A DNA stretch of 64,000 nucleotides, taken from Candidatus Moraniibacteriota bacterium (GTDB taxonomy: Bacteria; Patescibacteriota; Minisyncoccia; Moranbacterales; UBA2206). Position numbers and translations under genes: made by a program. The stretch covers positions 5,584 through 69,583 of the forward strand of contig JBAQNP010000020.1 in NCBI GenBank assembly GCA_049303905.1, in the 5' to 3' direction. Shown here piece after piece: positions 3,415-63,433 of this stretch (positions within the stretch are counted from its first letter, which is position 1; each line of letters starts with the position of its first letter). The notes beneath the pieces are model-generated. The model was not told where the DNA came from. It was given only the letters and a program-made list of their open reading frames with translations, and did no database searches.

Positions 3415-4590
3415 ATGTTTGAGATAATTTCAAAAAATCCCGCCTCGACTCGCGGAGACGGTCACTCGTCGATGCGAGGCGGGAGCAATAGTCGAGTTGG
3501 AAAAATTAGACTTAAAAACGGAGAAGTTAACACTCCGTTTTTTATGCCTGATGCGACGCGTGGTTTTGTGCGATCAATTGACAATGAAATTTTAAATTCC
3601 ATAGGTCTCGAAGCGATTCTCATTAACACCTATCATTTGTTTTTAAATCCTGGAATGAAAATAATCAAAGAAGCGGGTGATGCTCATGGCTTTATGAATT
3701 GGTCGCGTCCACTGCTTTCTGATTCGGGTGGATATCAGGTTTTTTCGCTTATTCATAAAAATCCGCGTCTTGGGAAGATTACTGATAATGAGGTGATTTT
3801 TAAATCTCCCCATAGTGGAGAAAAACATATTTTAACACCAGAAATTGCCATTCAAATTCAGTTTGATTTGGGGGTGGACATGATGGTTTGTTTGGATGAT
3901 CCACCACCGAATGATTATTCAAAAGATAAAATTGAAAAAGCAGTTTTGCGGACTATTCGTTGGGCAAAGAGGTGTAAAGATGAATATGAAAAACAAATTC
4001 AAGAAAGAAAAATATCTGAAAAAAATCGACCGTTAATTTTTGGGGTTATTCAGGGCGGGGAATATTTAGATCTTAGAAAACATTGTACCGAGGAACTAGT
4101 GAAAATCGGGTTCGATGGTTATGGTTTTGGAGCGAGACATATCGATGTTGATGGAAATTTCATGGAAGAAGTGGTGCGAGAAACCGCTGGCTTTATCCCA
4201 GAAAATTCATTGCGTTTTGCTTTGGGAGTTGGTACACCGGAGGATATTGTGAAATGTTTTTCATATGGCTGGGATATGTTTGATTGTGTGATTCCTACTA
4301 GAGAAGGGCGACATGGGCGTTTGTTTTTGCGAAAAGGAAAGAGTCTCACTGAATATGAAACAATTAATATTAATAACGGAAAATATAAAAATGATTTTTC
4401 GCGAATTGACGAGAATTGTGATTGTATGTTATGTAAGAATCACACTCGAGCCTATTTGCACCATCTTTTTTCTTCCAAAGAAATGCTTGGGATGAGACTC
4501 TCTGCAATTCATAATTTGAAGTTTTATGTGGATTTACTGGCGTCACTCCGAAATGGCGTAAATTCAAAAAAAATTGAACTCAAACCTTAA
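3415..4590 (+). CDS. tgt: Queuine tRNA-ribosyltransferase
   Basis: 391 aa with the DSGGYQ motif and a C-terminal CDCMLC zinc site. The N-terminus carries a 15-aa insertion encoded by a GC-rich palindrome. Confidence 0.9.
   Translation: MFEIISKNPASTRGDGHSSMRGGSNSRVGKIRLKNGEVNTPFFMPDATRGFVRSIDNEILNSIGLEAILINTYHLFLNPGMKIIKEAGDAHGFMNWSRPLLSDSGGYQVFSLIHKNPRLGKITDNEVIFKSPHSGEKHILTPEIAIQIQFDLGVDMMVCLDDPPPNDYSKDKIEKAVLRTIRWAKRCKDEYEKQIQERKISEKNRPLIFGVIQGGEYLDLRKHCTEELVKIGFDGYGFGARHIDVDGNFMEEVVRETAGFIPENSLRFALGVGTPEDIVKCFSYGWDMFDCVIPTREGRHGRLFLRKGKSLTEYETININNGKYKNDFSRIDENCDCMLCKNHTRAYLHHLFSSKEMLGMRLSAIHNLKFYVDLLASLRNGVNSKKIELKP
3439..3483 (+). repeat. GC-rich palindromic element family 1, 45 nt, in-frame inside tgt (encodes PASTRGDGHSSMRGG)
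   Basis: cccgcctcgactcgcggagacggtcactcgtcgatgcgaggcggg has terminal inverted repeats cccgcctcg/cgaggcggg. It is the reverse-orientation match of the copies at 37026, 29539 and 62138. Confidence 0.75.
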
Positions 4591-4712: not shown

Positions 4713-6080
4713 ATGAAAAATTCAATTAATAATAAAAAAATAGAATTACTGGCTCCAGCTGGCTTGCCTCGCCAAAGCAAAAAAAAGACAAAAGTCGAAT
4801 TGCTTGCGCCGGCGGGCAGTATTGAAAAAATGAAATATGCCTTTGCCTATGGCGCGGACGCGGTTTATTTTGGTGTGCCGGATTTTTCTCTTCGTGTAAG
4901 GATTAATAAATTTAGCGAAAAAGATATTTTGGAAGCTGTCTCCTATGCTCATAAGTTAGGCAAAAAAATATATGTGACACTTAATATTTATGCGCATAAT
5001 CAACATTTGGAAAAAGTAGAAAAACATTTGAAGTTTCTTAGGAATATAAAAATCGACGGAATTATCGCTAGTGATCCGGGGATAATAAATTTGGTCAAAA
5101 AATATTTGCCGAAAGTGGACATCCATCTTTCCACTCAAGCTAATGCGACCAATTTTGAGGCGGTGAAATTTTGGAAAAGTTTGGGAGTGAAAAGAATAAT
5201 TTTGGCGCGCGAAGTGACGCTCAAGGAAATTGAAGAAATCGGAAAAAAAGTGAAAGGTATTGAGCTGGAGTATTTTGTTCACGGGGCAATGTGTATGAGT
5301 TATTCCGGTAGGTGTATTCTTTCTAAATGGATAAATGACAAGAGTGCAAACCTTGGAGATTGTACTCAGCCTTGCAGGTGGAAATATCATGAAGCATGTA
5401 GCATGAAACATGAAACAAAAGAAATATCTTTGATAGACAATCAAAAAAGATTCGAGATGGATATTGAAGAGGATCAGCACGGGACATATTTTTTTAATAG
5501 TTACGATATGAATCTGATTTCTCACATGGAAGAATTGGTGAAGGCCGGAATAAGTTCAATGAAAATTGAAGGACGAGCCAAAAGCGTCTATTATGTTGCG
5601 GTAGTGACACGGGCATATAGAAAAGTTTTGGACGCAATTTTGAATAAAAAAAATAGCTCAAAGGAAATTAGGAAAATAATTTCAGAACAAAAGAAAGAGT
5701 TGGATAATTTGGTTCATCGCGGTTATTCCACAGGTTTTCTTTTAGGCAACGAGCCGGCGCATAATTTTGAAGGAAAAATACAAAAGGGAAATTGGGAATT
5801 TGTTGGAGAGGTCATGGGCGTAAATGCAGGGACAGGTTTAAAACCTGTCCGTACTAATATTATGAAAATTCATAATGCAGTTTTGAGGCAGGATAAAATC
5901 GAAGCTATTACGCCGGAGAAAAATATTACACTCAAAATTAAAAAGATATTTAACGATCAGAAAAAAGAAATTTCTGAGGCTCACGGTGGGCATGAAAAAT
6001 TATATTACTTTGAGTTTGATAAGGTTTTGCCGGAGGGGAGTTTGATTAGGAAAAAAATAATTCTACAAAATACAAATTAA
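4713..6080 (+). CDS. Peptidase U32 family protein (PrtC/RlhA-like)
   Basis: 455 aa with ELLAPAG...AVYFG and EYFVHGAMCMSYSGRC motifs typical of U32. The ELLAPAG motif is duplicated at the N-terminus, and the CDS holds an MKHET element at 5388-5421. Confidence 0.8.
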   Translation: MKNSINNKKIELLAPAGLPRQSKKKTKVELLAPAGSIEKMKYAFAYGADAVYFGVPDFSLRVRINKFSEKDILEAVSYAHKLGKKIYVTLNIYAHNQHLEKVEKHLKFLRNIKIDGIIASDPGIINLVKKYLPKVDIHLSTQANATNFEAVKFWKSLGVKRIILAREVTLKEIEEIGKKVKGIELEYFVHGAMCMSYSGRCILSKWINDKSANLGDCTQPCRWKYHEACSMKHETKEISLIDNQKRFEMDIEEDQHGTYFFNSYDMNLISHMEELVKAGISSMKIEGRAKSVYYVAVVTRAYRKVLDAILNKKNSSKEIRKIISEQKKELDNLVHRGYSTGFLLGNEPAHNFEGKIQKGNWEFVGEVMGVNAGTGLKPVRTNIMKIHNAVLRQDKIEAITPEKNITLKIKKIFNDQKKEISEAHGGHEKLYYFEFDKVLPEGSLIRKKIILQNTN

Positions 6081-6108
6081 TTACAAATTTACAAATATAC
6101 AAAACTCT

Positions 6109-6492
6109 ATGAATAATGATGGGGTAATTTATAAAGAATTGAGTTATAAAATAATGGGTGCTATATTTGAAGTATATAATGAGTTGGGGTATGGCTTTAA
6201 AGAAAGATATTATGAAGATGCTATTGCAAAGGAGTTTGATAGGATAAAGTTGGTTTATAAAAGACAATTACCATATAAATTAAAATATAAAAATGAAATA
6301 ATTGGTATTTATAGATTTGATTTTTTGGTTGACGATAAAATTATTATAGAATTAAAACAAGGCGATTTTTATTCAAAGCAAAATTTCACGCAAGCTTTGC
6401 AATATCTGAAGGCAACAAAATTAAAATTAGCAATTTTGATAAATATAACACAAAAAGGAGTAAAATTTAAAAGAATATTAAACATTAAATAG
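6109..6492 (+). CDS. GxxExxY family protein (PD-(D/E)xK nuclease superfamily)
   Basis: 127 aa. The start YKELSYKIMGAIFEVYNELGYGFKERYYEDA and FDFLVDDKIIIELK match the GxxExxY family pattern. Flanked by inverted tacaaat/atttgta word arrays. Confidence 0.75.
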   Translation: MNNDGVIYKELSYKIMGAIFEVYNELGYGFKERYYEDAIAKEFDRIKLVYKRQLPYKLKYKNEIIGIYRFDFLVDDKIIIELKQGDFYSKQNFTQALQYLKATKLKLAILINITQKGVKFKRILNIK

Positions 6493-9162: not shown

Positions 9163-12100
9163 ATGAAAAAGAAACTGAACGCATTGGGTTTAGAGATAAA
9201 GATTAAAATTAAAAATTACTCCAGAATGTTTCTAAAATCAAAAATAAAATTACTAATATTTTTCTTCTCAATAACTGTGTTATTGGTTTTGACGTCGAAT
9301 GATGCAAGTGCTTATACCTGTACTTGGACCGGAACAACTTCTACTGCTTGGGCGATAGCCACCAACTGGTCTGGGTGTAATTCAACTATTCCACAAACGA
9401 CGGATGATGTGGTGATTAATGTTGCTTCAGCCAATCAACCAATCCTTGATCTCATAGGAGGGAAAACAATAAATTCTCTTTCGATCGGATCGACACTAGC
9501 TTCAACCCTTACTCTTTCCAATGGTTTAGTAGATGTTAATGTTAATAAATTAACCATCACTAATAATCTAACTATTGGAGGTTCTGGCACAATTACCAGC
9601 ACCGCCAACACCACCGCCCAAACTCACAGTGTGAATATGTCGGTGGGAGGGAATGTGGGTATTGAGAGTGGGGGGAAGATTGATGTGACGGGGAAGGGGT
9701 TGAGTGGAGGAGCGGGGGGGGCTGTATATACTAGTGGTTCACCCGGTTACCTTATTAATGGTGGCGGTGGCAGCGGTGGCGGTTATGGCGGTTATGGTGG
9801 CAGTTGCGGTGGCGGTGGCGGTTATGGAGGGGCAGGAGGAGGTGGCACTGGCGGAGCAGGCGGAATAGTACATGATCAAGTTGATAATTCTCACCCAACT
9901 GTTCTTGGCTCTGGAGGTGGTGGTGGGTCAGGAGATGGAGCTGGTCATGCTGGGAGTGCAGGTGGCAAAGGGGGTGGATCAATAAAATTAAATGTGCTAG
10001 GAATACTAACTTTGAATTCCGGTAGTGGGATATACTCCAATGGAAGCAATGGAATCAACGGAGGAGCTAGTGGCGGAGGCGGAGGAGGCGCTGGCTCTGG
10101 TGGTTCAATTTGGATCCAAGCCGGAACAATTACTGGCACAGGAACGGTTCGGGCTAATGGAGGAACAGGAGGAACTGTCACTGCTTTTAGTATAACAGCA
10201 ATAGGTGGTGGTGGAGGAGCAGGTGGAAGAATTGCAATTTCAAGCACGAGAGGATTAACAATAACAGCTGCTGGTGGTCTCGGATACGATAGTCTATATG
10301 GCGGAACCGGCACAATATACTACAACGCTTCCGGAATATACACTTCCGAAGTTTTGGATTTTTCTGGAGCTAGAGATTTTACTACATCTGACATTACTAA
10401 ATCAGAACCTGGGACTTCTACAGTAGTAGTTTCACTTCACGGTGGTGACACCGATAATCCAAATGACTGGGCAGACAATTGGACAGTTATAAATGACAAC
10501 GACGACATCTCAGTTTTTGATAATTTCAGATATTTGCAATACAAAGTAGAATTTTCCTTTACTGGTTTGTCGACTGAAGATAAACCTAGTTTGCAAGATA
10601 TTTCAATAAACTATAACGCTTATCTTGACAAAACCCTCACCTCCTCAGTATACAATTCCAATTCCGACGCTAACTTAATCGGAGGAATATCTTGGGATGA
10701 AACTCTAAGCTCAAACACTAACATTAAATTCCAAATCCAAACTTCCGCCGACGGAGTCACTAATTGGTCAGGATGGTTTGGACCAGACGAAACTGACACT
10801 ACATATTTTGACGAAACTGATTCCCCTGACTTTTGCACAAAAACTGATTCAATTGTCACTTGCACAGTAGACGCTATCCCCTCAGCTTTCAAAGACGGAG
10901 CCAATGATCAATACTACCAATACAAAGCCTATCTAGATACTACCGATGGACTGGCTACTCCAACTCTAAATTCTGTCACCGTCACCTACGTAGTCAACGC
11001 CAACCCGGAAATTGAAGCCAGTCAAACTACCGCTGTCCCGGATGCCAATCAAAGAGTTAATGTTTCATATAACGTCCGAGACACCGACTCAGTTTCCGGC
11101 ACCATCACTCCAAGTTTTGAATATTCCCTAGATGGCGGATCTAGTTGGGTATCCATAACTTCCGGTTGTCTTGGTGCTACTGACTTAGCTGCTAAAACAG
11201 TCAATACCACCGAAGAAACTAAAAACAATTATATAACTTACACTGCCGTTTGGACTCCTGCTTGTGAAGCTGGTATCTCCACCACTACTTATGAAATCGA
11301 CGTTCAAATCCGAGTGAGAGCTGATGATGGTCAAGCCGCTAATCGCTATGGGTATGGAACAACAGAAAATTTCACCCTCGACACCAAAGCACCAATTCCC
11401 GACACCAAATCCATTATTATCTCCGCCAGAAAAACTACTGACAACCTCGCTCTCAATGCTGTCGATGATTCAACCAAACAAATGCGAGTAGGATTAGAAT
11501 CAGATCTATCTGACGGAACTTGGATAGACTACAACACTCTAGCTACAATTGATATTACCGACAACCCTGAAACTGCCTATGTTCAATTTCGAGATATCTT
11601 TGGCAACACTTCCGAAATTGAGAGTGTCACTGCTCCTGTTGCTCCTCAAAGCCTGATGATTCAAGACACTTCCAACACTCTTCTTGCCGAACCCGAATAC
11701 CGACTCTTCATAGCTTGGCAAGTACTCGACAATGACCAATACGGAGCATTATTTGATAAATATGTCATCTACCGCAGTGCCGACAATGGGGCTACCTATA
11801 CAGAAGTTCACACTATTTCCGACATCAGCACCAACTATTGGGCTGACAATACTGTAGTAGGAGAAGCCACTTACTATTATCGCGTCACTCACAAAAACGA
11901 CTACGGCATTGAAAGTTTTGGCAATGAATCCGCCTACAGCGACCCAGTCTATGGCAATGCCAACGGAGTTGAAGATGCCGGCGAAGGTGGAGGAGGAACA
12001 TCATCTGTTCCACCGGTTATTTCCAATGTTGCTATTCCCGAAGATTCCATCTATTCCACCCAAGCCACTATCACTTGGGACACTGACACTCTCTCTGACT

Positions 12101-14652
12101 CAACAGTCAAATACAGCGCTGATGCCGGAGTCTTTACTACCGGTAAAGTGATAACCACTTTACGAAACAACGGCACTCCCTACGGACCGCACACGGTTAC
12201 TCTTACCAATCTCAGTCCTAATACTACCTACTATTTCCAAGTTCAATCGGCTGATCAAAATGACAACGAAGCTACTAAACCCCAATCTGGTGATGATGAG
12301 TATCCAGACGGCTACAGTTTCACTACCGATCCTGGGCCACCAATTCATAGTGCTTGGACCACTCGAGTGACCAATCATAGCGCCACCATTGCTTGGAGCA
12401 CTGCCGGCACTCCTCCGGAAACATCCGTACCTTCTAATTCTGTGGTCACTTATTCCAAAAACTTTGACTTAGGCGAACCAACCACCATTGGAGGTTCTGA
12501 TGACTTAGTGACTTATCACGAAGTAACTATTAATGATCTTGATCAAGGAACTCTCTATTATTACCAAGTTCAATCCAGTGACGGCAACTATACTTCAATT
12601 GGAAAAAATGGTGACAGCTATTTCAGTTTCACCACCGACATTGACAACGTCGCCCCAACAATTACTTTCGATCCCGACACCGATATTACTAAAACTGACA
12701 CTACCGCCAGAGTTTCTTGGACAACCTCTAGTGAATCAGCTAGATCAACTCTGGAATATGGTACTGATACTGATTATGATTTAGGTACGCTCACCAATGC
12801 TAATTACAATACTAATCACATTTTTGATTTAGAAGATCTTACTCCAGAAACTACTTACTATATCCGACTTACCTCGACTGATATTAATGACAATGCGACT
12901 GTAGTAAGTGGAAATAGTTTTACTACTTTGGCGATAGCTGATGAGAGTGGGCCGACTATTTCAGACGTGGTAGTGAGTGATCTTAAGTATAATGAAGCGA
13001 CAGTTAGTTGGGAGACAGACACAGCCAGTGATTCTCGAGTGGAATATATTACAGCTACAGGCGGGGATTTTAGTGAGGCACCCTTTGCGGGAATAGCTAC
13101 ATCAAAAAACAACGCATCCGATCTTGGTCTTCACTCTGTAATTCTCTCTGGCCTCAACTCCATCACCACCTACTATTTCCAAGTTAAATCCACTGATCAA
13201 GATGGTAACACTTCTACATTAAAAGAAGGAACCAATGGCTACACCTTCACCACCACCTCCCCAACCACCGACTCTGACTCCAACGGCGAAGGAGATCAAC
13301 TCACCGACATCATGTCTCAAATCCAAGATATGATCGACAACTACTATTTCACCGAAGCCGAAATCCAAGACGCTCTCTCCGGACTCTATTCCATCTCCAT
13401 AACCAGTAGTGGCCCATCTGTAGATATCACTGACACCACCGCTACTTTCACCTGGACCACTAACCGACCAGCTATCGGCAAGATTTACTATTGGCAAGAC
13501 ACTGACAACGAGGACACGGCCGTAAGCCAAGCCGAAAACATCACTGCGGCTAGAACTGACCATGAAATCATAATTAAAAACCTCAACGCTAACACCAAGT
13601 ATAATTTCTACGCTTACTCCGAAGGACTCCTAGGTACCACCACCCAATCAGAAAACAAATCTTTCTCCACGGAAGACACCGCCAGTCTCTCTGGCATCTC
13701 CATTTCCAACCTTACTCTTAACTCCGCCGATATCTCTTGGACCACCACTGGCTCCATTGACTCTTCCCAACTTGAATACGGCGAATCAATTAAATATGGC
13801 AACGAAAACAAAGGTAAAACAGACGGCAATCTCCATACTGTCAATTTAACCAACCTCAAAGAAAACACCACTTACCACCTAAGAGTCACTGCTACCGACT
13901 CTGACGGTCAAACCCTCACCAGTGACGACTACTCCTTCACCACCACTTCTCTCCCCGTAATCTCCAACGTTACCATCAAAGATATCCAAATCGAATCCGC
14001 CACCATTAATTGGCAAACTAACGTCAAAACAGACTCCCGAGTAGAATTCAAAAAAGAAAACCAAGACCAAGGGACTACCACCGGTAAACTCGAAGCAGTG
14101 ACTGACCACTCCTTCACTCTTACCAACCTTTTCCCTGGAACTAGATATACTTTCAAAGTCTCTTCCAAAGACACCTTCAACAATGAATCTAGTAGTGAAG
14201 AACAATCTTTCACTACCAACGAAGATCTCAACGCTCCCCAAATCACCAACGTTAAATCTGACACCACCGTCTTTCCTGGTAAAGAAGCTCAAATCCAAAC
14301 CATCATTAGTTGGAATACTGACAAAGATTCTAATTCTATCCTGGCTTACCGCGAAGGAGTCGAAAAAGACCCTAACCTAATTGACCAACTTAAAAACCCT
14401 GACATAACTAAAATTGATAACTGGAAACTAATCAAAAAACAAGATCTCACCAAAAACCATCTCTTTGTCCTGACTGATCTAAAACCTGCCAGTGTCTATC
14501 AATTCAGAACTGCTTCATATGACAAACACAACAATGTCTCAGTCTCAGAAAACTATTCCTTACTCACCCCCACTAAACAACAATCCGTCCTAGATCTCAT
14601 CATCCAAAACTTTGAATCTACCTTTGGATGGGTGAAGAGGATTGGGAATTAA
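9163..14652 (+). CDS. Giant cell-surface protein (1829 aa) with N-terminal TM/signal, a glycine-rich (GGxGG)n module and about 10 tandem Fn3-like domains
   Basis: N-terminal hydrophobic segment. Residues about 190-330 are Gly repeats (GGGGSGGGYGGYGG...). Repeated units of about 90 aa follow the pattern ATITW.T...S.V.YG......LT.L.P.T.YYFQV.S.D..N. C3-rich codon usage is unlike neighbouring genes. Reverse-strand Pro-rich ORFs here are artefacts. Confidence 0.8.
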   Translation: MKKKLNALGLEIKIKIKNYSRMFLKSKIKLLIFFFSITVLLVLTSNDASAYTCTWTGTTSTAWAIATNWSGCNSTIPQTTDDVVINVASANQPILDLIGGKTINSLSIGSTLASTLTLSNGLVDVNVNKLTITNNLTIGGSGTITSTANTTAQTHSVNMSVGGNVGIESGGKIDVTGKGLSGGAGGAVYTSGSPGYLINGGGGSGGGYGGYGGSCGGGGGYGGAGGGGTGGAGGIVHDQVDNSHPTVLGSGGGGGSGDGAGHAGSAGGKGGGSIKLNVLGILTLNSGSGIYSNGSNGINGGASGGGGGGAGSGGSIWIQAGTITGTGTVRANGGTGGTVTAFSITAIGGGGGAGGRIAISSTRGLTITAAGGLGYDSLYGGTGTIYYNASGIYTSEVLDFSGARDFTTSDITKSEPGTSTVVVSLHGGDTDNPNDWADNWTVINDNDDISVFDNFRYLQYKVEFSFTGLSTEDKPSLQDISINYNAYLDKTLTSSVYNSNSDANLIGGISWDETLSSNTNIKFQIQTSADGVTNWSGWFGPDETDTTYFDETDSPDFCTKTDSIVTCTVDAIPSAFKDGANDQYYQYKAYLDTTDGLATPTLNSVTVTYVVNANPEIEASQTTAVPDANQRVNVSYNVRDTDSVSGTITPSFEYSLDGGSSWVSITSGCLGATDLAAKTVNTTEETKNNYITYTAVWTPACEAGISTTTYEIDVQIRVRADDGQAANRYGYGTTENFTLDTKAPIPDTKSIIISARKTTDNLALNAVDDSTKQMRVGLESDLSDGTWIDYNTLATIDITDNPETAYVQFRDIFGNTSEIESVTAPVAPQSLMIQDTSNTLLAEPEYRLFIAWQVLDNDQYGALFDKYVIYRSADNGATYTEVHTISDISTNYWADNTVVGEATYYYRVTHKNDYGIESFGNESAYSDPVYGNANGVEDAGEGGGGTSSVPPVISNVAIPEDSIYSTQATITWDTDTLSDSTVKYSADAGVFTTGKVITTLRNNGTPYGPHTVTLTNLSPNTTYYFQVQSADQNDNEATKPQSGDDEYPDGYSFTTDPGPPIHSAWTTRVTNHSATIAWSTAGTPPETSVPSNSVVTYSKNFDLGEPTTIGGSDDLVTYHEVTINDLDQGTLYYYQVQSSDGNYTSIGKNGDSYFSFTTDIDNVAPTITFDPDTDITKTDTTARVSWTTSSESARSTLEYGTDTDYDLGTLTNANYNTNHIFDLEDLTPETTYYIRLTSTDINDNATVVSGNSFTTLAIADESGPTISDVVVSDLKYNEATVSWETDTASDSRVEYITATGGDFSEAPFAGIATSKNNASDLGLHSVILSGLNSITTYYFQVKSTDQDGNTSTLKEGTNGYTFTTTSPTTDSDSNGEGDQLTDIMSQIQDMIDNYYFTEAEIQDALSGLYSISITSSGPSVDITDTTATFTWTTNRPAIGKIYYWQDTDNEDTAVSQAENITAARTDHEIIIKNLNANTKYNFYAYSEGLLGTTTQSENKSFSTEDTASLSGISISNLTLNSADISWTTTGSIDSSQLEYGESIKYGNENKGKTDGNLHTVNLTNLKENTTYHLRVTATDSDGQTLTSDDYSFTTTSLPVISNVTIKDIQIESATINWQTNVKTDSRVEFKKENQDQGTTTGKLEAVTDHSFTLTNLFPGTRYTFKVSSKDTFNNESSSEEQSFTTNEDLNAPQITNVKSDTTVFPGKEAQIQTIISWNTDKDSNSILAYREGVEKDPNLIDQLKNPDITKIDNWKLIKKQDLTKNHLFVLTDLKPASVYQFRTASYDKHNNVSVSENYSLLTPTKQQSVLDLIIQNFESTFGWVKRIGN

Positions 14653-27724: not shown

Positions 27725-29976
27725 ATTTTTTCTGAAAACTTTTTAAGGGAATCAGCTATTAGCGGATGCTCTTTTAACTTGGGATCGTTTTCTAATAAAT
27801 ATGCGGCTTCGGCACGGGCGAATTTAATGAGTTTTGTATTGCCTAAATTTTCCATAGCAATATCAGGCAAGCCTGATTGAATGGTGCCAAAGAATTGTCC
27901 TGGACCACGTAATTTCAAATCATGCTCAGAAATTTCAAAACCATCATTGGTTTTTTCCATTATTCTTAAACGCGTAGGGACTAAGCCCCCAATTGGGGAC
28001 TTAGTCCCTGAATTGGCAAACAAAAAACAATAAGATTGCTCTTTTCCTCGTCCAACTCGTCCGCGAAACTGATGCAATTGGGTGAGACCAAATCTCTCGG
28101 CGTTTTCAATGACTATTACAGTTGCATTGGGAATATCGATGCCAACTTCTACTACAGATGTAGAAACTAAAATATCAAAATTTTTATTTTTAAAATCTTC
28201 CATCACTTCTTCTTTTTCTTTAGCTTTCATTTTCCCATGAAGAAGCCCAAGCTTAAATTCAGAAAATATAACTTGGGATAATCTCTCGTGTTCCTCTTTG
28301 ACGGCTTTGACATCGATCATACTTTCAGAAAGTGATTCCTCGACTAATGGCAAAATAACAAAAGCTTGTCGACCTTTTTTTATTTCACTGCGAATGAAAT
28401 CATAGACTTTTTCTCGATCATTCGGGGTAATTATTTTAGTAATAATATTTTTTCTATTTTTAGGCATTTCATCTAAAATTGACAAATCTAAACTGCCAAA
28501 ATAGGCGATGGCCAGCGTTCGTGGAATTGGCGTAGCGGTCATAGTTAAAAGATGGGGGATAACTTTTTTATTCCCATCATCGATATTCATAGTTTCACTT
28601 TGGAGTGTTGCGCGTTGATTGACGCCAAAACGATGCTGTTCATCGATAATCACCAGTGCTAGATTTTTAAATCGAACATCTTTTTGAATTAGCGCGTGAG
28701 TGCCGATAACTAACTGCACTTCATCTGTTTGGATAGATGATAGCAACTCAGAGCGAGTTGTGTTTTTTATAGTTCGAGTATAATTTTTAATTTTCAATTT
28801 GCAATTTTCAATCAATTTTAAATTTTCAATTTTCAAATCTTGATTTACTTTTGGTTCTGAAATTAATTTATATGAGCTAGTTAACAAAGCTATTTTTATA
28901 TTGTAATTTTTAAAAATATCACAAAAACTTTCAAAATGTTGGCGAGCCAAGACTTCTGTTGGCGCCATAAGAGCCGTTTGATATCCGGCGGAAATTGTTT
29001 GTAGTGCGGAAATGGCGGAAACAATTGTTTTTCCAGAACCAACATCACCATTAAGCAGTCGATTCATGGGGCATGGTCTTTCTAAATCTTTCAAAATTTC
29101 GAAAGTTGCCTTTCTTTGAACGTCAGTGAGCTTGAAGGGTAATTCGAGCGTGAATTTCTTAATTAATTTTTCATCAAATTTTATTTTGTTAGAATCTTTT
29201 TCTTTCCAGTTTTTTCTAATTTCCAAAGTTCTGATTTGCACTAGAAACATTTCTTGAAAGGCCATTCTTTTTTGGGCGCGAATAAGCTTTTCCATATCAT
29301 CAGGGAAATGAATTTGCGAGAGGGTAGTATAGATATCGGATAGATTATATTTTTTTCGAATTTCAATAGACAAAATATCAGGTATATTTTTAGCTAAAGG
29401 CAAGAGGGTTTTTATCTGCCAGCGAATCCATTTGGAAGTTATGCCGGAAGTTTCACTGTAGATTGGGACGAGTCTTCCAGTGTTAGTGGCATCGCGAGTG
29501 GATTTTTCAAAGGCAGGATTACTCATAGAAAAATATTTCCCGCCTCGCGCCTGCCTCGCCGAGTCAAGGCGGGTCGACGAGCAGTTGTCTCCGCGAGTCG
29601 AGGCGGGCCCACTCATTCCAAGTTTTCCAGAAAATCTTGCGGTGGAGCCAATGGGAAAATTTTCTAATATATAAGGCTGATTAAACCATACAGCCTTGAG
29701 AAGATTTCCATTTTGATCCTCGAGGACGATTTCCGTGATGGTCATTTTTCGACGAAAGAGTCGATTGTTTTTGGCTTTGATAATTTTGCCTTCGACTGTA
29801 ATAGCTTGCCCAACGAAATCATTTGAAAGCGAAACGGTTTTGGAAAAATCATCATAACGAAAAGGAAGATATAATAAAAGATCTTTGATTGTAAGAAGTC
29901 CGAGTTTTTCCAAAACACGGATATATTTAGGTGTAATGCGGGGGACAGATTTTAGTGAAGTGTTTATGTCTAGCAT
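27712..29976 (-). CDS. recG: ATP-dependent DNA helicase RecG
   Basis: 754 aa with the wedge domain and helicase motifs (DVGSGKT, DEQHRFGV). Contains in-frame insertions: a nested family 1 GC palindrome (29539-29608) and an AT-rich attttcaa repeat block (28783-28838). Confidence 0.9.
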   Translation of the reverse strand: MLDINTSLKSVPRITPKYIRVLEKLGLLTIKDLLLYLPFRYDDFSKTVSLSNDFVGQAITVEGKIIKAKNNRLFRRKMTITEIVLEDQNGNLLKAVWFNQPYILENFPIGSTARFSGKLGMSGPASTRGDNCSSTRLDSARQARGGKYFSMSNPAFEKSTRDATNTGRLVPIYSETSGITSKWIRWQIKTLLPLAKNIPDILSIEIRKKYNLSDIYTTLSQIHFPDDMEKLIRAQKRMAFQEMFLVQIRTLEIRKNWKEKDSNKIKFDEKLIKKFTLELPFKLTDVQRKATFEILKDLERPCPMNRLLNGDVGSGKTIVSAISALQTISAGYQTALMAPTEVLARQHFESFCDIFKNYNIKIALLTSSYKLISEPKVNQDLKIENLKLIENCKLKIKNYTRTIKNTTRSELLSSIQTDEVQLVIGTHALIQKDVRFKNLALVIIDEQHRFGVNQRATLQSETMNIDDGNKKVIPHLLTMTATPIPRTLAIAYFGSLDLSILDEMPKNRKNIITKIITPNDREKVYDFIRSEIKKGRQAFVILPLVEESLSESMIDVKAVKEEHERLSQVIFSEFKLGLLHGKMKAKEKEEVMEDFKNKNFDILVSTSVVEVGIDIPNATVIVIENAERFGLTQLHQFRGRVGRGKEQSYCFLFANSGTKSPIGGLVPTRLRIMEKTNDGFEISEHDLKLRGPGQFFGTIQSGLPDIAMENLGNTKLIKFARAEAAYLLENDPKLKEHPLIADSLKKFSEKIHLE
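29539..29608 (+). repeat. Family 1 GC-rich palindromic element, nested/duplicated copy, in-frame in recG
   Basis: cccgcctcgcg + cctgcctcgccgagtcaaggcggg + tcgacgagcagttgtctccgcgagtcgaggcggg. On the - strand it encodes PASTRGDNCSSTRLDSARQARGG. Confidence 0.75.
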
Positions 29977-35184: not shown

Positions 35185-36603
35185 ATGAAACAGAATAAAT
35201 TTTATATTACAACTCCTATATATTACGCTAATGCATCGCCTCACATTGGGCATGCTTATACCACAATTGCGGCGGATGTTTTGGCTCGATGGCATAGATT
35301 ACAGGGCGATGAAACTTTTCTCCTGACTGGAATGGATGAGCATGGAGCAAAAATTCAAAAAAAAGCGGCAGAAGTTAAAAAAGATCCTCAAAAATTTGTG
35401 GATGAAATTTCCGTGGAATTTGAAGATATCTGGAAAAAATTAAATGTTCAATACAATGGTTTTATCAGAACTACTAGTGAAAAACACAAAAAAGCCGTGC
35501 AAAAAGTTTTGCAAACGCTATATGATAAAGGTGCAATTTATAAAGGTGAATATGAAGGATTGTATTGCGTTGGCTGCGAGCAATTTCTAAATGAAAGCGA
35601 TTTGGTGGATGGAAAATGCCCTGATCACAATACAGTTCCGGAAAAAATGAAAGAAGAATGCTACCTTTTGAAAATGACCGAAATGCAAGAAAAGCTTATT
35701 GAAAAAATAAAAAAAGATGAGATGAAAATTTCTCCGGAAAGATATAAGAATGAAATTTTGTCTTTCTTGGAGAATCAAGAATTAAAAGATATTTCAATTT
35801 CTAGAAAAAATGTTTCTTGGGGAATATCATTGCCATTTGATGATCAGCATACAACCTATGTTTGGGTGGATGCTTTCTTAAATTATCTTACCGGTCTTGG
35901 CTGGGATGGAGATGAAAAAAATATTCCGAAGGAGTGGCCAGTCGACATAAATTTAATTGGCAAAGATATTTTGCGAGTGCATGCCACAATTTGGCCAGCA
36001 ATCTTACTTCATCTCGGCATAGAATTGCCAAAAATGATTTTTACTCATGGACATATTCTTTCGGGTGGAAAGAAAATGAGCAAAACTTTGGGTAATGTAA
36101 TTTCTCCTCAAGAAATGATAGAAAAATTTGGCACAGACGGAACGCGATATTTGCTTTTAAGCGCTGGAACTTTTGGTGAAGATGTTGATATGACGATGGA
36201 AAGAATGGTTGAAAAATATAATGCGGATTTAGCGAATGGATTGGGAAATTTAGTTTCAAGAGTTTTGAAACTTAGTGAAAAATCTGAAATTTCTTACAAT
36301 AAATTTGAATATAAGATTGATCCTGATATAGCCCACAGAATAAACAAAATGGGATTAGGAGTGGAATTAAATAAAATTATAAAAATGGTTTCAGATGCTA
36401 ATAAATATATGGGAGACACAAAACCATGGGAATTAGTAAAGGATAATCAAGAATCTTTTAATGAAGTAATGAAAAAACTTTTTATTGATTTATTTTCTAT
36501 AGCTTTTCAGTTGGAGTATTTTATGCCAGAAACTTCAGAAAAAATTAAAAAAGCAATAGATTCAAAAAAACTAGAAGAAGTTTTATTTCAAAGGATAAAA
36601 TAA
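35185..36603 (+). CDS. metG: Methionine--tRNA ligase, short form
   Basis: HIGH-type motif (ASPHIGHAYT), KMSKT motif (KMSKTLGNV) and Zn-knuckle cysteines. Confidence 0.9.
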   Translation: MKQNKFYITTPIYYANASPHIGHAYTTIAADVLARWHRLQGDETFLLTGMDEHGAKIQKKAAEVKKDPQKFVDEISVEFEDIWKKLNVQYNGFIRTTSEKHKKAVQKVLQTLYDKGAIYKGEYEGLYCVGCEQFLNESDLVDGKCPDHNTVPEKMKEECYLLKMTEMQEKLIEKIKKDEMKISPERYKNEILSFLENQELKDISISRKNVSWGISLPFDDQHTTYVWVDAFLNYLTGLGWDGDEKNIPKEWPVDINLIGKDILRVHATIWPAILLHLGIELPKMIFTHGHILSGGKKMSKTLGNVISPQEMIEKFGTDGTRYLLLSAGTFGEDVDMTMERMVEKYNADLANGLGNLVSRVLKLSEKSEISYNKFEYKIDPDIAHRINKMGLGVELNKIIKMVSDANKYMGDTKPWELVKDNQESFNEVMKKLFIDLFSIAFQLEYFMPETSEKIKKAIDSKKLEEVLFQRIK

Positions 36604-36620
36604 ATTTCATATAATCTATA

Positions 36621-36674
36621 GCATGTAGCATAAAACATATTTTGTTTCATGCTTCATGTTTCATGCTTCATGTT
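36621..36674 (+). repeat. MKHET-type AT-rich element (catgaaacatg word array), palindromic arrangement in the tatD 5' leader
   Basis: gcatgtagcataaaacat...tttcatgcttcatgtttcatgcttcatg shares gcatgtagcat and catgaaacatg words with the in-CDS copies at 5388, 54003, 54747 and 59741. Confidence 0.6.
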
Positions 36675-39774: not shown

Positions 39775-39932
39775 TTTCAGATGCTCCATCTAACGAGGTG
39801 GGGCAAAATGAGATTGTTAAAAATTCCAAGATACAAGAAACAAGAAACAAACAAATCACAATTTTAAAAATTCAATAATCAAACAGTGTTAATTTGTAAG
39901 TTGATTATTGAAAATTATTTGTATCTTGTAGC

Positions 39933-40445
39933 TTGTTTCTTGATTATTATAATTTTATGGATGAACTAATAAAAACATTTCACATTGAAGTTAACTTACT
40001 CTTAGCGCAGATGGTCAATTTTGTCATCGTGCTTTTGGTGCTGTATAAATTTGCCTACAAACCGATTTTGAAAACATTAAATGACAGGACGAAAAAAATT
40101 GAAAAAGGTTTGAAAGATAGTGCTGATGCTTCACAAAAATTGGAGGAAATAACTGAAAAAGAAAAAGAAGTTTTACTAAACGCCAAAAAAGAAGCCCAAG
40201 AAATTATCAAAAAATCTGAAAATGAAGCTAGGAAAAATGCTGAAAACATCACGACCGAAATGAAAGAAAAAAATGCCAAAATGCTTGAAGACGCCAAGGC
40301 AATGATTGAAGAAGAGAAAAAGAAAATGCTTTCTGAGATAAAATCAGAAGTGGCTGATCTTGTGGTGATGGCGACGGAAAAAGTGATTGCGGAGAAATTA
40401 GATTTAAATAAGGACAAAGAAATAATTGAAAAAGCGATAAAATAA
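39933..40445 (+). CDS. atpF: ATP synthase F0 subunit b
   Basis: N-terminal TM followed by a long charged coiled-coil. Confidence 0.8.
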   Translation: MFLDYYNFMDELIKTFHIEVNLLLAQMVNFVIVLLVLYKFAYKPILKTLNDRTKKIEKGLKDSADASQKLEEITEKEKEVLLNAKKEAQEIIKKSENEARKNAENITTEMKEKNAKMLEDAKAMIEEEKKKMLSEIKSEVADLVVMATEKVIAEKLDLNKDKEIIEKAIK

Positions 40446-40847
40446 ATGAAAATCACAGCCACGCAATACGCGAAAAGTTTATATGAAGTGACACGGGAAA
40501 AATCTCAAAACGAGATTGGTGTTGTGATAGAAAATTTTGTGAAAATTTTGACGAAAAATAGGCAAACTAAATTGGTTGTGAAAATTATCAAGAAATTTGA
40601 AGAGTTATATAACAGAGAAAGTGGTATTGCGGAAGTGGAAATAATAACAAGATACAAGATACAAGATACAAGATACAAACAAATTGAGGAATTTATTAAG
40701 AAGAAATACGGGGCGAAAGAAGTTGTGATTGAAAATAAAATTGACGAAAGCATCAAGGGTGGAATAATTTTGAAAATCGGCGATGAAATTTTGGACGCGA
40801 GCGTGGAGAGACAGTTAGTAGAGTTGAAGAAAAGTCTGAACCACTGA
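40446..40847 (+). CDS. atpH: ATP synthase F1 subunit delta (OSCP)
   Basis: Position and size fit. Start overlaps the atpF stop. Contains an (AAGATAC)x4 tandem heptamer encoding TRYKIQDTRYK. Confidence 0.7.
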   Translation: MKITATQYAKSLYEVTREKSQNEIGVVIENFVKILTKNRQTKLVVKIIKKFEELYNRESGIAEVEIITRYKIQDTRYKQIEEFIKKKYGAKEVVIENKIDESIKGGIILKIGDEILDASVERQLVELKKSLNH

Positions 40848-43014: not shown

Positions 43015-43108
43015 TCTTTACTAATTACGAATCAAGTACGAACATAACTAATAAAAAAATTCGTAATTCGTATATTAGTAAATAATTAGTAATTCGTAAA
43101 GAAAAGCT

Positions 43109-44397: not shown

Positions 44398-44640
44398 ATG
44401 TACCTCCTTTTAAGGTTAAAAAATACGTTGATTTTCACTAACCTAATATTATACTCCAAATCAACTAAAAAGTCAACCCTTAAATCCTAATCAGTGAATA
44501 ATTGGCTAAAATAAAGCAAAGAATAACTTTTTTACGAATTACGAATTTTATACGAATATACTAATAATATTTTTTTAAAGATTAGTATATTAGTAAAGAG
44601 ATTAGTAATTAGTAAAGACATAACTTAAAATTAATTCTAA

Positions 44641-46093: not shown

Positions 46094-46135
46094 GAATTTC
46101 TAATTTCTAATTTCTAATTTCTAATTTCTAATTTC
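46094..46135 (+). repeat. Tandem heptamer (AATTTCT)x6 ending 3 nt before the atpC start codon
   Basis: gaatttctaatttctaatttctaatttctaatttctaatttctaaATGG. No Shine-Dalgarno sequence in this spacer. Confidence 0.8.
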
Positions 46136-46138
46136 TAA

Positions 46139-47169: not shown

Positions 47170-49608
47170 ATGGAAAAATACGAACCTAAAGAAATCGAGC
47201 CTAAATGGCAAAAAAAGTGGGCAGAAAACCCGGATAATTTTAGCGCTAAAAATGACTCTGACAAGGAAAAAGCCTTTATATTAGACATGTTTCCCTATCC
47301 GTCAGGGGCGGGGCTACACGTGGGGCATGTGGAAAGCTATACGGCGACGGACATATATTCTCGCTATCTTCGAATGAATGGGAAAAATGTGCTTCATCCG
47401 CAGGGTTTTGACGCTTTTGGTCTTCCAGCGGAAAATTATGCGATAAAGACGGGAATTCATCCAAAAGAAACAATTTCCAACGCGGTAGAAGTTTTCAAGC
47501 GTCAAATTGATTCACTTGGTTTTTCTTATGATTGGTCGCGCGAAGTTAATTCATCAGTACCTGAATATTATAAATGGACACAGTGGTTGTTTCTTTTGTT
47601 TTATAAAAATGGTTTGGCGTACAAGAAAAAAGCCAAGGTGAATTGGTGTCCAAAATGTCAAACGGTTCTGGCAAATGAGCAGGCGGAAAATGGCAAATGC
47701 GAAAGATGCGAATCGGAAGTTATTCAAAAAGATCTCGAGCAATGGTTTTTCAAAATTACTGATTTCATTGAAGACAAAGGAAAAACTTCTGGGCTATTAA
47801 ACGGCTTAGAAAAAATTGATTGGCCAAATTCAACAAAGCTTTTGCAAAAAAATTGGATTGGAAAATCAGAGGGCGCAGAAGTTTATTTTAAATTTGAGAA
47901 TAGCGATGAAGTGGTTTCTGTTTATACTACTCGAGTGGACACTATTTTTTCTTGTACTTATATAATTCTAGCTCCTGAGCTTGAGCTAGTTGAAAAAATA
48001 ACAACAAAAGAACAAAAAGAGGAAGTTGATGCATATATTAAACAAGCTAATTCCAAAACTGATTTAGAGCGAACTGGAACACAAAAAAATAAAACTGGAG
48101 TTTTCACGGGAGCCTTTGTTATTAATCCAGCTACAAATGAAAAAATTCCTGTTTGGATTTCTGATTTTGTTTTGGCTGGATATGGAACTGGTTCTGTTTT
48201 TGCTGATGCTCATGATGAAAGAGATTTCGAAATGGCAAAAAAATATAATATTCCACTTAAAGTTTCTATTAAGCCAGCGGACGAAAGTTTATGGGAAAAA
48301 GTAAAAAATCTTGAAGAGTGTTATCCGGATGATGGCGTCCTAGTAAATTCCGAGCAATTTGATGGCTTGACTTCATCTGAAGCAAGAGCCGAAATTACAA
48401 AATGGCTAGAAGAAAATAATTCAGGTAAAAGAGCGATAAAATATAAACTTCGAGATTGGCTAGTTAGCCGACAAAGATATTGGGGCGCGCCTATTCCAAT
48501 TATATATTGTGAAAAATGCGGTGAGGTGCCAGTGCCAGAAATTGATTTGCCAGTTGAATTGCCGGATGATGTGGATTTCAAACCGACCGGGGAATCTCCT
48601 CTAAAATATTCCAAAAAATTTCAAGAAGTGAAATGTCCAAAATGTGGAGGGGAAGCAAGAAGAGAATCGGACACGATGGACACTTTTGTTTGCTCTAGCT
48701 GGTACTATTTACGCTACGCTGACCCAAAAAATGAAAAAGAATTTGCTTCCAAAGAAAAACTGGAAAAATGGCTTCCGGTGGATCTTTATGTCGGCGGAGC
48801 GGAGCACAGTGTGCTTCATCTTCTTTACGCCCGATTTTTCACGAAAGTTTTGCATAATTTGGGGTACCTAAATTTCGATGAACCATTTTTGAAACTGCGT
48901 CACCAAGGAACAATTCTGGCGGAAGACGGAACGAAAATGTCAAAATCAAAAGGCAATGTGGTCAATCCGGATGATGTTGTGAAAGAATTTGGCGCGGATG
49001 CTCTTCGATTTTTTGAAATGTTTATGGGGCCTTTGGAAGATATGAAGCCGTGGCAGACAAAAGGTATTGTGGGAGTGAGGAGATTTTTGGAAAAAATATG
49101 GAAAATTCAGTATAAAGTATCAAGTATAAAGTATCAGGTATCAAATAAAAAGCTAGAATCCCTGATGCATAAAACAATTAAAAAGGTTAGTGGGGATATT
49201 GAAGAAATGAAATTTAATACTGCAATAAGTCAATTAATGATTTTGGCTAATGTTTTTGATAAAGAAGATGAAATAAACTTAATACATTATACTTTATACT
49301 TACTACTGCTTAGTCCTTTCGCACCGCATCTAGCTGAAGAACTCTGGGAAAAATTAGGGCACAATGAGTCGATATTTTTGCAAAAATGGCCTGTGTATGA
49401 TCCGGAAATGATTAAGGACGAAGAAATAGAACTTATTATTCAAATCAATGGAAAAGTGCGCGATAAGATAACTGTGAATGCAGATATTTCAGAAGACGAA
49501 GCAAAAATGATTGTGCTTGAAAGAGAAAAAGTTAAGATTCATATCGCAGAAAAAGAGATAAAAAAAATTATATTTGTTAAGGGGAGATTAATAAACATAG
49601 TAGTTTGA
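47170..49608 (+). CDS. leuS: Leucine--tRNA ligase
   Basis: HVGHVESYTATD (HIGH motif), KMSKSKGN motif, 812 aa. Contains an in-frame heptamer repeat block (agtataa/agtatca) at about 49100-49140. Confidence 0.95.
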   Translation: MEKYEPKEIEPKWQKKWAENPDNFSAKNDSDKEKAFILDMFPYPSGAGLHVGHVESYTATDIYSRYLRMNGKNVLHPQGFDAFGLPAENYAIKTGIHPKETISNAVEVFKRQIDSLGFSYDWSREVNSSVPEYYKWTQWLFLLFYKNGLAYKKKAKVNWCPKCQTVLANEQAENGKCERCESEVIQKDLEQWFFKITDFIEDKGKTSGLLNGLEKIDWPNSTKLLQKNWIGKSEGAEVYFKFENSDEVVSVYTTRVDTIFSCTYIILAPELELVEKITTKEQKEEVDAYIKQANSKTDLERTGTQKNKTGVFTGAFVINPATNEKIPVWISDFVLAGYGTGSVFADAHDERDFEMAKKYNIPLKVSIKPADESLWEKVKNLEECYPDDGVLVNSEQFDGLTSSEARAEITKWLEENNSGKRAIKYKLRDWLVSRQRYWGAPIPIIYCEKCGEVPVPEIDLPVELPDDVDFKPTGESPLKYSKKFQEVKCPKCGGEARRESDTMDTFVCSSWYYLRYADPKNEKEFASKEKLEKWLPVDLYVGGAEHSVLHLLYARFFTKVLHNLGYLNFDEPFLKLRHQGTILAEDGTKMSKSKGNVVNPDDVVKEFGADALRFFEMFMGPLEDMKPWQTKGIVGVRRFLEKIWKIQYKVSSIKYQVSNKKLESLMHKTIKKVSGDIEEMKFNTAISQLMILANVFDKEDEINLIHYTLYLLLLSPFAPHLAEELWEKLGHNESIFLQKWPVYDPEMIKDEEIELIIQINGKVRDKITVNADISEDEAKMIVLEREKVKIHIAEKEIKKIIFVKGRLINIVV

Positions 49609-49719
49609 ATCATTTTAACATCCTAGCATTTTAACATATTAGCATCGCTAAAGTAGCATTATTTGATAAAATGCTAAAATGTTAATATGTTAATATGTTA
49701 ATATGTTAAATGAACTTTT

Positions 49720-50400
49720 ATGCAAGCAGTCATACTCGCGGCGGGTCGGGGGAAGAGAATGGGAAATTTGACAACGGCAACAACCAAGCCAATGCTTAAA
49801 ATCAAAGGCAAACCGATCTTGGAACATAAAATAAATGCTTTGCCAAAAAAAATCAAAGAGATTATTTTTATCGTGGGTTATCGAAGCGAGGATATAATTC
49901 GTCACTTCAAAAGATATTACAATGGTCGAAAAATTATTTATGTTTTTCAAACTAATCTAAATGGTACTGGTGGCGCGATTCATTTGGCGAAAAGTATTTT
50001 GCGGGATAAATTCTTAGTAATGATGGGCGATGATTTATACACTAAAAAAGATTTGAACAATCTCCTGAAACATGATTTGGCAATTTTGGGTTTTGAAGTT
50101 GACAATCCGAGTGCTTTTGGAGTGATTAAGGTTAATAAAAATAAACATATGATAGACGTGGTTGAAAAACCTAAGAATATGAAAAAAGCCTTAGCTAACA
50201 CTGGAGTATATGTTTTGAATCGTAATTTTTTTGATTATGAATTAGTTTCTGTGGGTAATGGAGAATTTGGACTGCCACAAACTATGGCTAAAATGGCGAA
50301 GGATCATAAAATAAAAGTGGAAAAAGCGACATATTGGCATGCGATTGGTAATCCTGAAAACCTAAAAGAAGCCGAAAAAGTTTTGAATAAATTTATTTAA
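49720..50400 (+). CDS. Sugar-phosphate nucleotidyltransferase (NTP_transferase fold)
   Basis: AVILAAGRGKRMG and GTGGAI motifs. Confidence 0.75.
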   Translation: MQAVILAAGRGKRMGNLTTATTKPMLKIKGKPILEHKINALPKKIKEIIFIVGYRSEDIIRHFKRYYNGRKIIYVFQTNLNGTGGAIHLAKSILRDKFLVMMGDDLYTKKDLNNLLKHDLAILGFEVDNPSAFGVIKVNKNKHMIDVVEKPKNMKKALANTGVYVLNRNFFDYELVSVGNGEFGLPQTMAKMAKDHKIKVEKATYWHAIGNPENLKEAEKVLNKFI

Positions 50401-63332: not shown

Positions 63333-63433
63333 ATTTTTAATTACATATTTAATTACGTAATTAAATGATAATTATAAAATCCGCTTTGGGGCGGATTTTT
63401 TTGAAAATTGAAAATTAGAAATTGAAAATTTTT

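Follow-up and report, generated by a model that had tools for sequence, protein, structure and literature searches.

Cyanobacterial heptamers of the short tandemly repeated repetitive (STRR) kind were reportedly described by Mazel et al. in 1990. Across many prokaryotes, heptanucleotides are the most over-represented of the long simple sequence repeats (LSSRs), with slippage as the proposed cause (Mrazek 2007, as cited in PMC4679880 and PMC4692102); this over-representation has been known since 2007 and is still without explanation. Among the described families are the GGGAATC and GGGGA(T/C)T repeats of Xanthomonas and Nostoc (Rehm et al. 2015, PMC4692102) and the TAACTGA direct repeats of marine Beggiatoaceae, cyanobacteria and Bacteroidetes, for which a regulatory role has been proposed (MacGregor 2015, PMC4679880). 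Repeat DNA within genes is also known from the Rickettsia palindromic elements (RPEs), which, in the summary given by a later review, are about 150 bp long and have a defined consensus (Ogata et al. 2000, reviewed in PMC10969869), and from the tandem repeats of Borgs, which create disordered protein regions and, within open reading frames (ORFs), always have units divisible by three (Schoelmerich et al. 2023, PMC9879509). Here we describe a tandem-repeat family with the unit CATGAAA (equivalently ATGAAAC) in a 64,000-nucleotide stretch of a Candidatus Moraniibacteriota genome (contig JBAQNP010000020.1, positions 5,584 to 69,583; hereafter the window), a member of the Patescibacteria or candidate phyla radiation (CPR). 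It is one of several heptanucleotide families in which this Moranbacteria genome is rich, and is probably under concerted evolution. CPR genomes are small and nearly all housekeeping, and a full-text literature search found no paper on heptamer repeats in this group.

An earlier note on the window, made by a model from the letters alone, had reported five copies of an AT-rich coding mini-element encoding MKHET, in four genes and one 5' leader. All five copies were confirmed, with coordinates exact or off by a few bases, and the translations given for them hold (HEACSMKHETKE, KAYNMKHETNKKEK, LMKHETYNMKQKTNSK and CNMKHETYNKTEKN). The arrays and their companion units are as follows:

5388-5417, plus strand: CATGAAG CATGTAG CATGAAA CATGAAA CA, in the TrhP-like U32 gene (4713-6080)
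54000-54035, plus strand: CAGAAAC ATAAAGC ATATAAC ATGAAAC ATGAAAC A, in a hypothetical gene (126 aa, 53790-54170)
54051-54060, plus strand: inverted unit ATGCTTCATG in the same hypothetical gene, within an 18-nt segment unique to the window and the L002 lineage
54749-54783, plus strand: CATGAAG CATGAAA CATATAA CATGAAA CAAAAAA, in rlmN (54333-55430)
59746-59774, minus strand: CATGCAA CATGAAA CATGAAA CATATAA C, in elp3 (58687-60309, minus strand)
36620-36638, plus strand: left arm of the tatD-leader hairpin, AGCATGTAGCATAAAACAT, with CATGTAG and CATAAAA units
36645-36673, minus strand: tatD-leader array (CATGAAG CATGAAA)x2, four alternating units (Tandem Repeats Finder (TRF) period 14, 100% match)

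Of the five CATGAAA arrays, four lie within coding sequence and are read in frame. The U32 array encodes HEACSMKHET, directly 3' of a C-x6-C-x15-C-x3-C cysteine motif; the array of the hypothetical gene encodes QKHKAYNMKHETN and pairs weakly with the inverted unit downstream of it (-6.4 kcal/mol, z = -3.0); that of rlmN encodes MKHETYNMKQK and is followed by AAATTNA-type array remnants reaching to about 54805; and that of elp3 encodes SCNMKHETYN. In the leader copy, the tatD start codon (ATG at 36670) falls inside the last unit of the minus-strand array and is included in the hairpin, and a promoter-like TTCAAA-17-TATAAT (36587-36615) lies a few bases upstream of the hairpin. The period-7 calls of TRF (5388-5414, 36646-36672, 53994-54035, 54749-54778 and 59751-59774) agree with our own scans. 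With up to two mismatches allowed, CATGAAACATGAAAC has 15 matches in the window against 0.35 expected, a number reached in none of 100 shuffles. At gathering thresholds, the only Rfam matches of the window are one tmRNA and two tRNAs, none of them at an array. An assembly artefact was ruled out, as the arrays recur in independent assemblies (L001-L004, and an NCBI contig carrying the proteins P0121 and P0241).

Period-7 repeats as a class are strongly enriched. Perfect period-7 arrays number 5 in the window against 0.05 expected, with 0-1 for each other period between 4 and 15; imperfect ones number 7 against 0 expected, and a relaxed scan yields 13 against 0.4. The same enrichment is present in the relatives L002-L006 and L205-L208. 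The unit families of the window include CATGAAA, AAGAAAC, AAGATAC, TTGAAAA, AATTTCT, ACAAGAT, AGTATCA and TTACGAA, besides others.

Because 7 and 3 share no factor, (ATGAAAC)n gives the same cyclic peptide, M-K-H-E-T-stop-N, in all three frames. An identical peptide in different proteins therefore requires no frame-specific insertion, and the in-frame placement to which the earlier note drew attention is uninformative. The constraint visible in the coding arrays concerns the stop: the TGA codon is always substituted, by TGT, TGC, TGG, CGA or TAT. Among five U32 orthologues, the would-be TGA codon is TGT, TGC, TGT, TGG and CGA, each one step from TGA. We also surveyed 120 homologues each of RlmN, U32 and Elp3, which with the window query make 121 per set (P0121 and P0241, identical to the window query, are counted within them); here the residue at the stop position is C in seven cases, Y in four, K in two, and R and H in one each. 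The TTGAAAA family, whose cyclic peptide is LKIEN-stop-K, has likewise been purged of its stop: the residue that comes after KIEN in RlmN homologues is Y, C, S or L, and the TTGAAAA array in the RecG gene of the window has L, C and Y codons at its TGA positions. A non-standard genetic code, with TGA read as sense, was considered and rejected, given that the coding arrays consistently avoid TGA. Coding copies persist only with the TGA unit altered.

Evidence that the DNA rather than the peptide is the conserved entity comes from a codon alignment of the U32 genes of the window, L208 (87% amino-acid identity), and L205, L206 and L207 (67-69%). Outside the array, codons vary in 157 of the 199 degenerate columns with identical residues (79%). 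Inside it, they vary in 0/4 columns identical in all five sequences (Fisher p = 0.0024), and in none of the eight columns in which four or all five sequences have the residue in common. The only departures within the array are GCA, AGC, GTA and ATA, all of them non-synonymous single-base changes, giving 0 synonymous versus 4 non-synonymous. At the level of aligned codons, this pattern is the opposite of protein-level purifying selection, and the array is maintained across species at the DNA level and not through protein selection. The proposal of the earlier note that the copies are alike as DNA, rather than through convergence on a protein motif, is thereby upheld.

Codon-by-codon comparison of five syntenic relatives showed that the unit can be exchanged for another with the register kept. 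The elp3 loop has equal length in five lineages (window, L003, L005, L209 and L210). The window and L003 read TCA TGC AAC ATG AAA CAT GAA ACA TAT AAC, and L005 a close ATG-type variant (TGT AGC ATG AAG). In L209 (91% amino-acid identity), the same loop reads TCA AGA AAC AAG AAT CAA GAA ACA AGA AAC, with AAGAAAC units in register, and in L210 (83%) TCA AAA AAC AAG GAA CAA GGA ACA AGG AAC, with AAGGAAC units in register. At the array site of the hypothetical gene, again in register, the window and L002 have ATG-type units, L005 and L209 AAGGAAC/AAGAAAC, and L210 AAGTCGA. In the rlmN loop, the window and L002 are of the ATG type, L005 has GGGGACTAAGTCCCC-AATT-GGGGACTTAGTCCCC, and L209 and L210 have a GC-rich element; at this loop, the RlmN protein P0007 (76% identity) carries KKQETRNKEQE, which we matched by eye to the MKHETYNMKQK of the window. 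Unit type is incongruent between loci, with L005 being of the ATG type in elp3 and of the AAG type in the hypothetical gene. All units of an array differ at unit position 2, which is A or T, and a T there creates TGA, found instead as TGC, TGT or TAT. A change of every unit at position 2 goes beyond independent point mutations, and therefore points to concerted evolution.

There are also signs of exchange between loci. The 11-mer GCATGTAGCAT, with three derived positions, is common to the U32 array and to the arm of the tatD leader 31 kb away, and so bears out the sharing of derived variants between loci. Within the window, the arrays of U32, rlmN and tatD all begin with a CATGAAG unit, which U32 of the other lineages does not have. 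Of the words named in the earlier note as shared, GCATGTAGCAT (5394 and 36621) and CATGAAGCATG (5388, 54749 and, on the minus strand, 36648 and 36662) do recur, whereas the 23-mer CATATAACATGAAACATGAAACA is unique, at 54013; its 15-mer parts are found again, at 54013 and 54763 and, in reversed order, at 54756 and 59746 (minus strand). Further afield, 26 of 27 nt are common to the hypothetical-gene array of the window and the elp3 array of L295 (3001-4704; GTAGCATATAACATGAAGCATGAAACAAA; 69% amino-acid identity), a match that may reflect either a shared variant pool or convergence.

In the explanation we favor, replication slippage would create the arrays and alter them, together with the correction of mismatches when units of one array pair out of register, and the result would be concerted evolution. 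Short-patch ectopic gene conversion, or else templated repair, would carry the CATGAAA type to arrays at other loci, and this spread would explain the derived variants common to distant loci; such inter-locus copying is probable. In proteins, the arrays would be tolerated as disordered, hydrophilic loop filler and not as functional motifs, and the hairpin-forming leader arrays may influence mRNA stability or translation initiation. Several observations weigh against this explanation. First, the coding CATGAAA arrays show no copy-number variation among the close relatives examined, so slippage in the coding copies is something we infer rather than observe. Second, mutation biased toward AT could produce the stop-purged variants (TGT, TAT) repeatedly and independently, a convergence that weakens the argument from shared variants. 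Third, at only 28-35 nt the arrays are near the lower limit for homologous pairing, and ectopic conversion is no more than plausible. Fourth, the nucleotide-level conservation in U32 would equally fit selection on a DNA or RNA function. Fifth, the unit is not clade-specific, which supports a generic genesis of repeats but does not account for the dominance of one unit here.

This last point derives from the taxonomic distribution of the unit. Perfect (ATGAAAC)3 was found in at least 118 stretches of species-representative genomes, the hosts being several Moranbacteria, other CPR lineages, many Bacteroidota, Nostoc, Halotia and Proteus. In viral contigs, it occurs 6 times versus 63 and 15 times for two composition-matched control heptamers. 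The CATGAAA/ATGAAAC unit is not special globally. We considered the wide spread of perfect ATGAAAC arrays as a sign of a horizontally moving element and rejected this, as the control heptamers are equally or more common as threefold arrays in the viral contigs.

A more far-reaching possibility is an active, sequence-templated process in Moranbacteria, and perhaps in other heptamer-rich lineages, that rewrites 7-nt arrays in register at many loci; it could take the form of a dedicated short-patch conversion or repeat-synthesis activity. Templated rewriting would explain at once the AAGAAAC/ATGAAAC switches at constant length, the nucleotide identity across deep divergence and the variants common to unlinked loci, and, if true, would make the arrays a built-in diversification engine for the loops of essential enzymes. 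We regard its existence as decidedly unlikely.

The words common to distant loci, and the intergenic copies that form inverted pairs flanking a spacer, also invite comparison with a very small discrete mobile element, of the miniature inverted-repeat transposable element (MITE), repetitive extragenic palindromic (REP) or RPE-like kind, inserted by a transposase or recombinase and with the heptamer arrays as its terminal repeats. Genes for a Y1 transposase-like protein and for an ISL3 transposase are present in the relatives L004 and L206, respectively, and two loci (520-700 and 3830-3975) of the 91%-identical relative L002 carry a composite, some 130 nt long, (AATTTCT)n-AAACAATTTCCAATGYTTYAATGATTAAATTTTCT-(TTGAAAA)n, which is missing from the orthologous spacers of the window. 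Going by its sequence, this composite looks like a MITE with heptamer arrays as inverted terminal arms. However, the five CATGAAA copies vary in unit number, order and flanks and have no constant length or ends, and the discrete mini-element of the earlier note thus dissolves into one of about ten heptanucleotide repeat families in the window. Sister arrays are swapped in register in elp3 with the length unchanged, the coding copies lack hairpin potential, and neither of the two transposases has a tblastn match within the 64-kb window. No target-site duplication was seen by eye, no systematic search being made. Where the window has an array, relatives have another array or element in its place and not an empty site; insertion-free U32 is represented at the protein level by P0135, P0136 and P0138. 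A mobile element of this type is, in our estimate, quite unlikely.

Among known repeats, these arrays come closest to the LSSRs and STRRs. As in those, 7-nt units are arranged head to tail, period 7 is specifically over-represented and one unit is found scattered over many loci; most arrays are intergenic, some of them in inverted pairs, and they vary in sequence, and in non-coding copies also in length, between close relatives. Unlike them, they occur in a CPR host and have AT-rich units incapable of forming G-quadruplexes, several families lie in frame in conserved housekeeping genes, and units switch in register between relatives. None of the families of the window has the TAACTGA unit. Shared with the TAACTGA repeats are a forward heptamer with a stop in every frame, the position of several arrays a few bases from start codons and a scattered taxonomy, perfect ATGAAAC arrays being found in Bacteroidota and cyanobacteria too. 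In contrast, TAACTGA forward copies lie only at the ends of ORFs and only reverse copies lie inside them, whereas here the stop-containing orientation is ORF-internal with the stop unit mutated; moreover, many unit families coexist here, while related heptamers rarely form repeats in the Beggiatoaceae genome. With the RPEs, as the review presents them, the arrays have in common that repeated DNA of non-coding type lies in frame in many unrelated housekeeping genes at fold-compatible positions; they differ from the palindromic RPEs of that account in their tandem structure and their length of 28-36 nt, in lacking fixed ends and in that the coding copies do not fold into a significant hairpin. 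Finally, the arrays resemble the Borg repeats in being tandem DNA that evolves fast and supplies proteins with disordered, hydrophilic segments, and for which slippage is discussed as the origin. Borg repeats, however, are nearly all unique in sequence, while here one unit recurs at many loci, and the unit here is of 7 nt, the 7-residue period of the peptide arising from 21 nt.

Comparison with solved homologues and with some Moranbacteria orthologues bore out the prediction that the coded segments are insertions. The RlmN array corresponds to a gap of 11-15 aa in Cfr (9p0p) and RlmN (6fz6), a second array in rlmN (55250-55277) to a 12-aa gap relative to Cfr, and the elp3 array to a 13-aa gap in archaeal Elp3 (6ia8). 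In U32, the spacer from QPCRW to EEDxHG has 28 residues in the window versus 16 in distant U32 proteins and in the Moranbacteria proteins P0135, P0136 and P0138, an insertion of 12 aa relative to the 16-aa spacer. A metagenome scan with the U32 alignment, which returned mostly distant homologues and was used to fix the 16-aa spacer as ancestral, found no HETCNMKHET orthologue. In the AlphaFold2 (AF2) model of RlmN (mean predicted local distance difference test (pLDDT) score 85.3), only residues 144-153 and 304-318 fall below 50; these are the CATGAAA-derived and the AAGAAAC-derived stretch, respectively, each between well-predicted secondary-structure elements. The U32 model has pLDDT below 50 over residues 195-264, Fe-S motif and insertion alike, and cannot place the loop, and a phmmer search of U32 against Protein Data Bank (PDB) sequences gave no match.

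The same loops are hypervariable across the homologue sets of RlmN, U32 and Elp3. In some homologues, they hold peptides with a 7-residue period matching various heptamer families (NLKFKISNLKL, NQKLKTTNQKL, KIENCKLKIENY, KKQETRN and STNYELSTNVRI); in some homologues, they hold peptides derived from GC-rich palindromes, such as ARRDALQCVST, and in some they are empty. As a separate observation, GC-rich palindromic mini-elements fill the RlmN and Elp3 loops in L005 (10400-10450, the GGGGACTAAGTCCCC-AATT-GGGGACTTAGTCCCC element given above), in rlmN of L209 and L210 and in many Elp3 homologues, with TPRRGVST as another palindrome-derived loop peptide besides ARRDALQCVST; these palindromes therefore constitute a second class of repeat DNA translated there.

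MKHET-type peptides occur in 17/121 U32, 9/121 Elp3 and 2/121 RlmN proteins, with the window query counted. Moreover, Moranbacteria U32 and Elp3 proteins of only 62-76% identity have MKHET-like segments in the matching place, formally the very observation that the earlier note had named as refuting its proposal. In the light of the codon evidence, this reflects persistence or recurrence at the DNA level, and not a conserved protein motif. The recurrence in U32 and Elp3 (P0121 and P0241 being included in these counts) could otherwise suggest a functional peptide motif, convergent or conserved, in which selection acts on a His- and Cys-containing HETCNMKHET of Fe-S enzymes that modify RNA. Three of the four hosts do belong to this group (TrhP-like U32, RlmN and Elp3), and the U32 segment comes right after the cluster-binding cysteines. 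The gene annotated as a U32 peptidase (4713-6080) is closest to TrhP, the prephenate-dependent tRNA U34 hydroxylase (NCBIfam, E = 1.7e-121, below the curated cut-off), with the match in two stretches, the better of which stops at residue 235, at the insertion. However, the Cys position is variously C, W, R, Y, H or K, the segment is missing or replaced by unrelated repeats in many orthologues, and the RlmN segment is predicted to be disordered. The same DNA also occurs in a non-coding leader and in the hypothetical gene, whose whole protein has no Pfam or NCBIfam match. Neither the absence of synonymous changes beside four non-synonymous ones in the U32 array nor the patchy presence of the segment is the mark of a conserved motif, which would show purifying selection and family-wide presence. 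We consider a selected peptide extremely improbable. The predominance of Fe-S enzymes among the hosts is probably a consequence of CPR gene content, and the link to radical-SAM RNA modification drawn in the earlier note is not specific, since recG, atpH and leuS contain in-frame arrays of other heptamer families.

The arrays of these other families, including the second array of rlmN, are as follows:

55250-55277, plus strand: sister-family array CAAGAAA CAAGAGC CAAGAAA CAAAAAA of the AAGAAAC type, in frame in rlmN, encoding QETRAKKQK
39827-39850, plus strand: intergenic AAGATAC/AAGAAAC array upstream of atpF, the left arm of a hairpin with an inverted right arm at 39919-39942
28779-28838, minus strand: TTGAAAA-family array, in frame in recG, encoding DLKIENLKLIENCKLKIKNY
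40645-40680, plus strand: perfect (ACAAGAT)x4.6 array, in frame in atpH (OSCP), encoding ITRYKIQDTRYKQ
46095-46138, plus strand: perfect (AATTTCT)x6.3 array, ending 1 base 5' of the atpC start codon
49109-49143, plus strand: AGTATCA/AGTATAA array, in frame in leuS, encoding QYKVSSIKYQVS
63401-63430: TTGAAAA array
43018-43099, 44532 and 54193: TTACGAA arrays

In all seven coding arrays of the window, the A-rich strand is the sense strand, and the hydrophilic residues come from that orientation. The intergenic arrays sit in short spacers, often as inverted pairs and often adjoining start codons; those at 46095-46138 (atpC), 36645-36673 (tatD), 49667-49710 and 43058-43099 lie within a few nucleotides upstream of one. 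Two of the predicted hairpins are long, namely 39824-39950 (-31.9 kcal/mol, z = -5.3) and 49608-49722 (z = -6.1), and that of the tatD leader reaches -16.6 kcal/mol (z = -2.2). The coding copies have no significant fold relative to shuffles (z = -1.4 to -1.8). Unlike the coding CATGAAA arrays, some non-coding arrays differ in unit number between relatives: the AATTTCT copies upstream of atpC number 6 in the window versus 4 in L002, and the tatD leader of UBA4824 (L065) has (ATGAAAC)3, that is, three units versus four in the window, with (TTATAGG)3 instead at the position of the left arm.

These positions bear on a further alternative, in which the heptamer arrays are cis-acting DNA or RNA motifs under selection, to which a protein that binds nucleic acids, for example a post-transcriptional regulator, would attach, with the coding copies retained for that purpose. 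It would account for a U32 array without synonymous change in orthologues about 66-88% identical, with saturated flanks, and for intergenic arrays that adjoin start codons or form leader hairpins, as at atpC (46095-46138) and at tatD, where the array overlaps the ATG; such a role is what was put forward for the TAACTGA repeats (MacGregor 2015, PMC4679880). Yet the same loop holds another heptamer family, a GC-rich palindrome or no insertion in close relatives, about ten unrelated unit sequences show like behavior, the coding copies do not fold significantly, and no candidate binding protein was identified. On this evidence, selection for a cis-acting motif is unlikely.

The heptamer repeats described here, probably under concerted evolution, are of wider interest in that they have been pushed into conserved enzymes, where comparison of orthologues exposes their dynamics in the form of repeated stop purging, conserved arrays beside saturated flanks and in-register switches. 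They offer a tractable natural system for separating slippage alone from slippage with added exchange between loci. They also account for many odd low-complexity loops of CPR proteins, such as KIENCKLKIENY, NQKLKTTNQKL and HETCNMKHET, and call for caution among annotators and structure predictors, for such segments are translated repeat DNA and not functional motifs.

Some further features of the window and its relatives deserve mention. The spacers of the atp operon and the region just downstream of it (39824-39950, 43018-43099, 44532-44618 and 49608-49722) hold inverted pairs of heptamer arrays, which may act as processing, stability or attenuation signals. The length of LeuRS differs between relatives: it is 812 aa in the window, 864 aa in L002 and 989 aa in L005 (2412-5381), the last with a mid-protein match to the NUDIX domain. 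Directly 3' of the U32 gene lies a gene of the GxxExxY/PDDEXK_3 nuclease family (6109-6492, plus strand; TIGR04256, E = 1e-31), preceded by a TACAAAT-type repeat (6064-6103); a second member of this family is found in L210 (2573-2992). Finally, an ORF of 1829 aa (9163-14652) stands out by its GC content of 0.44 versus about 0.36, a negative GC skew and GGTGGC-type repeats (9760-9827), and may code for a foreign or surface protein.

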